A stretch of DNA of 64,000 nt from Schmidtea polychroa (Eukaryota). Position 1 is the stretch's first letter. Each line of letters starts with the position of its first letter. Positions 30,179 to 32,922 of this stretch are shown in pieces. The notes below the pieces were generated by a model. The model did no database searches, was not told the DNA's origin, and saw only the letters and a program-made list of their open reading frames with translations. The stretch is from positions 8,868,001 through 8,932,000 of the forward strand of contig CM097885.1 of NCBI GenBank assembly GCA_044892525.1, written 5' to 3'. Made by a program: the position numbers and the translations under genes.

Positions 30179-30713
30179 GATTATTATTATTATTATTATT
30201 ATTATTATTATTATTATTATTATTATTATTATTATTATTATTATTATTATTATTATTATTATTATTATTATTATTATTATTATTATTATTATTATTATTA
30301 TTATTATTATTATTATTATTATTATTATTATTATTATTATTATTATTATTATTATTATTATTATTATTATTATTATTATTATTATTATTATTATTATTAT
30401 TATTATTATTATTATTATTATTATTATTATTATTATTATTATTATTATTATTATTATTATTATTATTATTATTATTATTATTAATATTATTATTATTATT
30501 ATTAATATTATTATTATTATTATTATTATTATTATTATTATTATTATTATTATTATTATTATTATTATTATTATTATTATTATTATTATTATTATTATTA
30601 TTATTATTATTATTATTATTATTATTATTATTATTATTATTAATATTATTATTATTATTATTATTATTATTATTATTATTATTATTATTATTATTATTAT
30701 TATTATTATTATT
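30179..30713. repeat. (TTA)n microsatellite of ~0.53 kb
   Basis: Directly visible; mirror (AAT)n at 43658-44187. Confidence 0.97.
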
Positions 30714-32922
30714 GGGTAATGCTCGCAAGGGTACTGCCCGGAGTCTATCCGACAAAATATTTTGTCCCCCTATTTGTACGGCTCACAAGGGTACTGGTCA
30801 CGCTCAACAAGTCACAAGGGTACGGCGCAACACACACACACATATTATTATTATTATTATTATTTTCAAGGTCATATTATTTTATTTTTATTTTAATTAT
30901 CGATTGCGTAATAATAATAATTTTGTTTAAATCGTTGATTATATGATAATATTTTTATTTTTGTTTTAATTATCGATTACTTAATAATTTAATTTTGTTT
31001 AAATCGTTGATTATATGATTTTTTTTGTTTTAATTATCAATTACATAATAATTTCATTTTGTTTATTTTTCAAAATATTATTATTTTCAAGGTCATATTA
31101 TTATTTTCAAGGTTTATTATTATTTTTCAAAATATTATTATTTTCAAGGTCGTATTATTTTTTTTTGTTTTAATTATCGATTATGTAATAATTTAATTTT
31201 GTTTAAATCGTTGATTATATGATTTTTTTTGTTTTAATTATCAATTACACAATAATTTCATTTTGTTTAAATCGTTGATTATATTATTTTTTTTATTTTA
31301 ATTATCGATTACGTTTGTTTAAATTATCGATTATGTAATTATTTAATTTATCATTATTATTGGGAAAGAACGCCCGCACGGAAGATTAAAATAAATATTA
31401 TTATTTTCAAAGTTTTAATCAATATTATTATTATTATTATTATTATTATTATTATTATTATTATTATTATTATTATTATTATTATTATTAAAATTATTAT
31501 TATTATTTTCAAAGTTTTAATCAATATTATTATTATTATTATTATTATTTTTATTATTATTAATATTTTCAAAGTTATTTTGAAAATTCTTCTTATTATT
31601 ATTATAATTATAATTTGCAAATATTCATAAAACCTAATTTCTACGTCCATTTTATGCTTTTCAGCATTTTCATCATTTGTATATTTTAATAATTTTCAAT
31701 ATTTTCATAATTTCCAACATTTTCATGATTTTCATAATTATTAATATTTTCATGGATTTTTAACATTTTCATAATTTTCTACATTTTCATAATTTTCTAC
31801 ATTTTCATAGTTTTCTACATTTTCAATATTTTCATTATTATTTCAGGAACATTTTCATTAGTTACATGAACATTTTCATCAAATATTTTTCAAAGTAATA
31901 TTTCCGTTAGCTTATTTTCAAACAGTTTTTCAAAGTTCTTATTATTACTATTATTATTATTACTATTATTATTATTATTATTATTATTATTATTATTATT
32001 ATTATTATTATTATTATTATTATTATTATTATTATTATTATTATTATTATTATTATGATTATTATTATGATTATGATTGCAAATATTCATAAAACTTAAT
32101 TTCTGCGTCAATTTCATGATTTTCAACATTTTGATCATTTACATGAATATTTTAATAATTTTCTACATTTTCATAATTTTCTACATTTTCAATATTTTAA
32201 CGATTTTCAACATTTTCACGATTTTCAGCATTTTCATGATTATTTCAGGAACTTTTTCATCAAATATTTTTCAAAGTATTATTTTCAAAGAATTATTTTC
32301 AAAGAATTATTATTATTATTATTATTTTTATTATTATTTGCAAAGGTCTAATTATTATTTTAATTTAGAAGTTTCATTATTATTATTTACTTAAATATTT
32401 ATAAACTTAATTTCTACGTCAATTACATGATTTTCAACATTTTCATCATTTGCATGATTATTTTAATAATTTTCTACATTTTCAATATTTTCACGATTTT
32501 CAACATTTTCATGATTATTTCAGGAACTTTTCATCGAATATTTTTCAAAGTATTATTTTCAAAAAACTATTTTCAAATTATTTTCAAAGTTTTTATTATT
32601 ATTATTATTATTATTATTATTATTATTATTATTATTATTATTATTATTATTATTATTATTATTATTATTATTATTATATACTCCTAGTCTATCCGACAAA
32701 ATATTTTGTCCCCCTATGGGTACTGTTCACACTCAACAGGTTGCAAGGGTACTAGTCATGTTTATTATTATTGTTATACAATATGATGTTACTTAGACAT
32801 TTGAAGGTTCAACCATGGTTACAATTTCTACATTTTGAAAACTCTAATTTGATTGGCTATCTCAATCGTTATAAATGTAAAAACAAAAGTAATTTAGTTA
32901 TTAAGAAATTTATTTATTACTG

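Follow-up and report, generated by a model that had tools for sequence, protein, structure and literature searches.

A palindromic cis-module confined to one Polinton clade of Schmidtea polychroa, biased to one element end and under apparent constraint

Introduction

Among the closest described counterparts of the element reported here is the adenovirus packaging domain, in which A-repeats of the consensus TTTG-N8-CG, spaced at 21 bp and lying within about 600 bp of the ITR, are bound by IVa2 and L4-22K (PMC5033970, in the sections available). Baculovirus hrs, as presented in the accessible part of PMC6669502, are based on an imperfect AT-rich palindrome of about 30 bp, serve as both enhancer and origin, and are bound by IE-1; the poxvirus concatemer resolution sequence (CRS) is compared here from the available part of PMC8956199. 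For Polintons themselves, the accessible text of PMC8097293 describes cis-signals only as terminal 6-bp motifs and TIR length. Planarian Polintons are reported to be targets of PIWI and to be de-silenced during differentiation (PMC8532177, available in part).

The module described below was analyzed in a 64,000-nt stretch of the S. polychroa genome (hereafter, the window) and in genome-wide samples. A description of it was not found in the literature searched, including the available parts of PMC8502044, PMC6431247 and bioRxiv 10.64898/2025.12.11.693146, whose supplements or repeat libraries may hold the sequence. The asymmetry of the module between the ends of gene-bearing elements is new here.

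The module and its copies in the window

The module is approximately 100 bp long and is organized as a 15-nt lattice (period 15/30) around a GACA-N8-TGTC core, with a TATA run on its upstream side and GGGTA repeats downstream. Copies of the TATA unit are added in steps of 15 nt, and 4 of 45 modules at element ends have GGGTA units in its place. Palindrome-module matches with up to three mismatches numbered 44 over both strands of the window, compared with a mean of 5.0 and a maximum of 16 in shuffled sequence, and a profile derived from 12 window copies recovered exactly 18 full copies, the best match in the reversed-window control having an E of 1.1. All 18 sites of the original prediction are therefore present, one start being corrected to 36621 from 36620, and the palindrome is perfect at the five positions named (30751, 32695, 41661, 43605 and 51008). 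Because 12 of the copies form six mirror pairs in the 99.6–99.8% identical arms of two foldbacks, and those at 61665 and 61944 represent a tandem duplication (98.6% identical), about 11 of the 18 are independent. Genome-wide, an exact 22-mer of the module matched 9,735 times in 781 Mb and a degenerate 33-mer, allowing up to 2 mismatches, 21,663 times, with no match in either control. The module had been expected usually to abut (AAT)n, which is true of 9 of the 18 window copies and, on the upstream side, of only 85 of 219 sampled copies.

Three window elements, termed B, C and D, have AGTAG tips, with target site duplications (TSDs) of 6 bp. Element C (28850–45520; TSD TGAGAT) is a foldback with 8-kb arms that are 99.8% identical and carries eight modules. 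The outermost copy (30713–30830, plus strand) follows a 534-nt (AAT)n run, has GGGTA units instead of TATA as its 5′ part, contains a perfect palindrome at 30751–30766, and has 22 identical matches. The next (32679–32759, plus), also with a perfect palindrome, lies approximately 300 nt upstream of a RING-finger frame (33058–33576, plus; PF13920, E 1.5e-9; mirrored at 40795–41313 on the minus strand), which is the sole intact gene of the element and has CCAAT/TATA-type promoter words of its own. These are followed by a copy in internal slot U1 (34622–34726, plus) and by one in the centre-side slot U0 (36545–36652, minus), the TATA end of which points toward the foldback centre. The mirror copies of these four, from the outermost inward, are found at 43541–43658 (minus), 41612–41692 (minus), 39645–39749 (minus) and 37718–37825 (plus). 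At the centre, the arm continues for about 190 nt beyond the inner module and is then followed by a 690-nt unique spacer.

Element B (13334–22412; TSD AATAAC) is a foldback with six modules, located at 14468–14532 (plus; mirror 21214–21278, minus), 14849–14941 (plus; mirror 20811–20903, minus), 17033–17127 (plus; slot U0) and 18882–18972 (minus; slot U1). Element D (53371–62637; TSD AACAAT) is a gene-bearing Polinton with an internal deletion that encodes PolB (54859–56889, minus), rve (56771–57355, minus), an A32 ATPase (57890–58558, minus), a TBP-like protein (58589–59053, plus), a 136-aa ORF (59854–60264, plus) that gave no usable match in an atlas search, and a weakly Bcl-2-like product (61049–61372, minus). 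Its two modules, the tandem duplicates, lie on the minus strand at 61600–61718, at the TBP-side end, and at 61878–61997, on the inner boundary of the right TIR. Of the remaining window copies, one (50967–51039, minus) belongs to a decayed Polinton (about 47.9–51.4 kb), where it follows the terminal gene of 165-aa type, and the other (1756–1847, plus) is diverged and stands amid TIR-type motifs with no tip found; a Tc1/mariner-type transposase at 2310–3146 adjoins this diverged copy, whose palindrome is at 1772.

Host elements and confinement to one clade

The host elements have the characteristics of Polintons/Mavericks, namely AGT-type tips, TIRs and 6-bp TSDs (21 TSD-matched pairs), together with Pfam matches for pPolB, the rve integrase (below the cut-off, E 3e-6), the packaging ATPase and an adenovirus-type protease. 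The 407-aa capsid candidate of the module-bearing clade had no Pfam match; a second Polinton family in the same genome, which carries a DJR capsid and a PLA2-integrase, has PF21738.

Two samples were used to determine where the module occurs. The module-seeded sample, drawn mostly from contig C1, comprised stretches over 99 of the first 100 listed exact matches plus the window and yielded 219 distinct copies. Of these, 76 were assigned by a tip lying up to 2.5 kb behind them, 63 by a facing tip up to 9 kb away, and 29 by a Polinton gene no farther than 2.5 kb. Fifty of the other 51 have flanks in common with assigned copies and the last is the diverged window copy, and strict criteria thus place 218 of the 219 in Polinton DNA. 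In the module-blind sample of 36 evenly spaced 10-kb stretches (360 kb), 12.7% of which is DNA of the clade, all 12 modules fell inside that DNA and none of 24 (AAT)n runs away from it had a module. Likewise, no module was present in one element of the second Polinton family seen end to end; the host rDNA units (four stretches, about two units) gave no profile match at E<=10; the exact pattern was absent from metagenome contigs and from viral contigs; and a phage blastn search returned nothing. The module is confined to one TBP-encoding Polinton clade, including its gene-less derivatives, which agrees with the original proposal that it occurs in Polinton DNA only, and equal abundance outside Polintons was looked for in the 219-copy and module-blind samples and not found.

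Several features of the surrounding DNA were recorded in passing. The packaging ATPase of the window has at least 150 near-identical (99%) copies among 5140 genome candidates. The TIR of the second family contains a hairpin with a 13-bp stem and TGTCCCCT arms (L042:1320–1400; right end of L043), as well as scraps that, in our reading, resemble tRNA-derived sequence. Tandem 192-aa HMG-box genes in 2.1-kb units, with Polinton insertions, were observed in L036, L043, L045, L046, L048 and L049. Within the module-bearing clade, TIRs consist of arrays of TGACTCA, TCAAGGTCA or TTACGT words, which we take to be AP-1-, nuclear-receptor- and bZIP-like, and differ wholly between subfamilies (L101, L046, L048, L103, L124). 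A scrap at L101:5140–5210, which interrupts the terminal gene end beside a module, presumably resembles 28S rRNA.

Position, orientation and end asymmetry

From the 100 listed of 2,259 tip-pattern matches, 80 tips were chosen blind to the module, and 59 of these have an inward-facing module within 2.5 kb. The module is present at 25 of 26 TBP-side ends compared with 19 of 27 PolB ends (Fisher p 0.024, which is optimistic because copies are related and some tips are duplicates, such as L186/188 and L171/172); among the remaining tips, it is present at all 4 where RING comes first, at 11 of the 22 that are gene-less or of other type, and not at the single tip of one further class. Among the 21 TSD-matched pairs, three are foldbacks with modules at both ends and 18 are gene-bearing elements, which have the module at both ends (11), on the TBP side only (6, including a duplicate and an element with its other end deleted), on the PolB side only (0) or at neither end (1); the junction of this module-less element occurs once in the genome. 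The asymmetry rests on five independent discordant pairs plus element D, at whose PolB end there is no module, and the one-ended arrangement first noted in D is a recurring pattern.

Of 78 copies located no farther than 2.5 kb from a tip, 76 point inward. Gene-bearing elements have end copies only, located 0.4–2.2 kb inside the tip (444 to 2186 nt on the TBP side, where 5 of 25 lie within 700 nt), and foldbacks have dispersed copies; internal copies reach about 8 kb from the tip. Terminal genes mostly read toward the module and have CCAAT/TATA words of their own. In elements with two modules, TIR homology stops 130–180 nt past the module start in 7 of 11 cases; in 3 it extends for approximately 520 nt and takes in part of the adjacent gene, and 1 case is unclear. 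From this pattern, the module seems native to the TBP-side end and copied to the PolB end as the TIR lengthens.

For a module-less tip-to-tip piece of 750 nt (L156), none of 40 scored candidates was a near-identical copy of full length and the TSDs did not match, and L230 is a similar piece; both neither prove nor refute a need for the module. L144/L145 (G000:C1:4159947-4177111) is a TSD-matched gene-bearing foldback with the TBP-side gene end at both ends.

Two further repeats occur near the ends. A second palindromic repeat, of TGCA-N7-TGCA type and in up to about 13 tandem copies, is present at 22 of 27 PolB ends, with or without a module (1150–1650 from the tip in L142; L175; L046:7440–7500; about 54590–54620 in the window). 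In 31 of 45 end copies, the module has on its tip-ward side, at a distance of 108–297 nt, a conserved AAAG-N13-CTTT element enclosed by an inverted repeat of 10 bp; in 2 more the distance is about 700 nt. This element occurs at about 1070–1110 in the window and in most TIR types (L101, L046, L124, L129, L122).

Conservation and mode of recognition

When 35 flank combinations were compared, conservation rose sharply at the TATA run, 23–28 nt before the palindrome centre, remained mostly at 0.86–1.0 from −17 to +19, and faded through the 15-nt GGGTA repeats. Across seven TIR types (21 pairs), core identity is 0.92, compared with 0.62 for the first 48 nt of the tip, a value for which some tips are a few bases out of register; other non-microsatellite TIR windows reach 0.49–0.57. 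The module is thus conserved between elements whose termini have diverged, as originally predicted, and more so than the flanking TIR. Perfect palindromes occur in 37 of the 45 copies from gene-bearing ends and in 32 of the 219 module-seeded copies.

In the gene-less slots U0 and U1, core divergence is 0.069 and 0.072, compared with 0.19–0.28 and 0.10–0.26 in the respective flanks; in slots U2 (0.035) and U5 (0.030) it is no lower than in one flank (0.02–0.03 and 0.02), and gaps affect 0–1% of the core against 2–38% of the flanks. These loci were partly picked by exact matches, which favours conserved cores, slot U5 being free of such seeds. With about 20,000 copies, gene conversion could give a false impression of conservation, but it is not pervasive, because slot-specific core variants persist.

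A structured RNA or single-stranded DNA hairpin was considered and rejected: all eight module folds fell within the range of shuffled sequences (z between −1.2 and +1.3), Rfam gave no match at E<=1, and compensatory changes were not seen, the two variable core positions not being pairing partners. These observations suggest that the module is recognized as double-stranded DNA.

Foldback derivatives

Seven gene-less foldbacks mapped at both tips contain 4–11 modules each. A fixed cassette spacing of 1.9 kb was rejected, as the spacing arises mostly from two homologous segment families, X (1674–2630 nt, n=19) and Y (1867–2185 nt, n=17), and other slots measure 190–3675 nt. Segments X, Y, P and Q gave no Pfam match in 18 read-through frames and no clear strand bias in stop-free length. 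In the L108/L109 foldback, the slot that contains segment Y in one arm is occupied by the RING segment Z in the other.

Alternative explanations

As the main rival reading, the sharp upstream edge of the module might instead mark a tip-facing promoter on the opposite strand, with the repeats and core serving as upstream activator sites and the TATA run serving as its TATA box or initiator; its RNA would cross the (AAT)n run and the TIR, or enter the foldback centre, perhaps opening the end for DNA processing. Such a promoter, which we consider unlikely, would account for the abrupt stop of conservation at TATA over 18 upstream flank clusters, for the pyrimidine-A step, the place of which is fixed in 97 of 105 distinct copies, and for the 148 run X7 contigs that end loose at the TATA edge (among contigs of four runs on one gene-bearing end, which do not give strand or start). 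The contigs of two runs from organism B leave the module uncovered, which does not count as evidence that it is absent. Word counts, all made on related copies, point both ways: in slot U0, all 30 distinct copies contain a TATAWAW box and 28 of these 30 have GGTAAG no farther than 230 nt away, compared with 0 of 28 for the tail side; in slot U2, an ATG appears early in 21 of 23 copies and a donor-like word is present in 18 of the 23, but TATAWAW occurs in only 3 of 25 U1 and 0 of 23 U2 copies. A promoter also fits poorly with the GGGTA units that stand in for TATA in the four end copies and in the copy at 30713–30830, with gene-bearing elements that lack a gene tip-ward of the module, with the absence of a TATAAACAA box from all 45 end copies, and with the lack of a match to the host U6/U2 element. 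The host U6 and U2 genes form tandem arrays (793 and about 1015 nt; upstream DNA in L232 and L245) and have in common a candidate host PSE, located upstream at about −75 to −52. One module copy aligned to U6/U2 upstream DNA no better than shuffles in three of four comparisons (460–495 of 500), and the remaining comparison (14 of 500, other strand, uncorrected) aligned a stretch beyond the candidate PSE; an snRNA-type (PSE plus TATA) promoter was rejected, the module being without the host PSE of U6/U2.

The remaining explanations concern the origin and spread of the copies. That the module is a relic of enhancer or boundary elements of a larger ancestor, mostly functionless and kept alike by recent amplification and gene conversion, appears improbable: it would suit the old, fixed flanks of internal slots, which are common to families 65–70% identical, the native orientation in which the module precedes the RING gene (as does a core-less tail in L046), and the small excess of conservation in slots U2 and U5, but it sits badly with the persistence of slot-specific core variants, the near absence of core gaps, and the near-obligate presence at one end. 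A site of site-specific recombination or template switching, which would shuffle segments and make foldbacks, could explain why the unrelated segments Y and Z occupy the same slot between modules, why similar gene blocks have unrelated TIRs (L103 versus L124), and why TIR homology often stops just past the module. We regard this as very improbable, as homology ends 100–200 nt from the core rather than at the palindrome axis, the arms of foldbacks extend about 190 nt past the inner module, a given unique upstream flank is mostly found with the same downstream flank, and no recombinase family was matched among 71 ORFs scanned; the earlier suggestion of a recombination site is weak, since homology stops close to the palindrome rather than within it. 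Most improbable of all is a tiny non-autonomous transposon once inserted at TA sites in Polinton DNA, even though the sharp TA-rich 5′ edge, the variable 15-nt repeat tail and the many different flanks resemble one. In four flank sets, the upstream flank is followed by the module in 36 of 37, 33 of 34, 25 of 25 and 16 of 16 cases, the exceptions being partial deletions that keep the TATA end (the repeat-rich sets U9 and U10 are uninformative); moreover, the 30 closest copies all have the flanks of the window, orientation is fixed (76 of 78), and the module-blind sample has no copies outside the clade. Recent activity of such an element is largely refuted, and the notion of a tiny parasite of Polintons gives way to copies that move with whole elements, without empty sites and in fixed orientation. 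A MITE-, SINE- or Helentron-type mini-element was likewise rejected, since neither empty paralogous sites, nor free orientation, nor copies outside the host element were observed.

A putative needed-once docking signal

Judged from its sequence, the module is a clade-specific, one-end-biased cis-element under apparent constraint. The reading that we tentatively prefer, and to which we assign somewhat less than an even chance, is that of a putative double-stranded protein-docking signal, needed once per molecule, for copying or packaging. The module would be native to the TBP-side end and would reach the PolB end when end-to-end copying lengthens the TIR; a protein would read the core and arrayed proteins the 15-nt repeats, and foldback passengers may keep copies because these help them to compete for the machinery of the helper. 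The step served could be replication licensing, packaging or an overlapping enhancer. A bolder version, possible though doubtful, is that the module represents the first recognizable genome-selection signal of Polintons, a one-ended licence for replication or packaging that gene-less palindromic satellites hoard (4–11 copies) to out-compete their helper; if this were true, these satellites would be akin to defective-interfering genomes that have become fixed in the germ line of an animal. An element that is short, highly conserved and one-ended, and that gene-less satellites keep, provides a concrete probe for pull-downs, footprints and reporters; a cassette that binds protein or resembles a promoter could, at about 21,000 copies, also affect host chromatin.

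Comparison with known systems

Relative to the Maverick/Polinton ends described in the accessible part of PMC8097293, the elements studied here have the same AGT-type tips, 6-bp TSDs, PolB, integrase, ATPase and protease, and differ in having an inner conserved module, only 6-bp motifs and TIR lengths being described in that part. Like the poxvirus CRS, the module is conserved, end-proximal and promoter-like in some features, and an inverted pair of modules flanks the foldback axis. Unlike the CRS, it is not beside a hairpin, the pair is 1.0–2.7 kb apart with a non-palindromic spacer, and a resolvase was not seen; a CRS, with its hairpin-adjacent inverted repeat between sites, was therefore rejected as a candidate, the corresponding region of element C being its 690-nt unique spacer.

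The packaging signal of the original prediction is supported in part. As in the adenovirus packaging domain, a repeated cis-element lies inside one end of a linear TIR-bearing genome that has a packaging ATPase, and both are located beside enhancer-like repeats. The end asymmetry (25/26 versus 19/27; PolB-only 0/18) agrees with a signal native to one end. By contrast, the A-repeat consensus was found in 1 of 18 window copies on either strand, the spacing is 15 nt rather than 21 nt, most copies are more than 700 nt from the tip, beyond the adenovirus distance limit, and the module has a palindromic core and is often at both ends. Because the adenovirus consensus, spacing and distance are not reproduced, packaging is only one of several functions that the sequence cannot separate. 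The module is comparable in part with baculovirus hrs, which are based on an imperfect AT-rich palindrome: it too has a palindrome and, in foldbacks, several copies per molecule; it differs in its 16-bp palindrome (about 30 bp in hrs), in its fixed orientation to the end, and in the gene-bearing elements with end copies only, hr genomes being circular. A member of neither group, the module would, by analogy, work most like the adenovirus end-proximal packaging/enhancer region and the baculovirus hrs.
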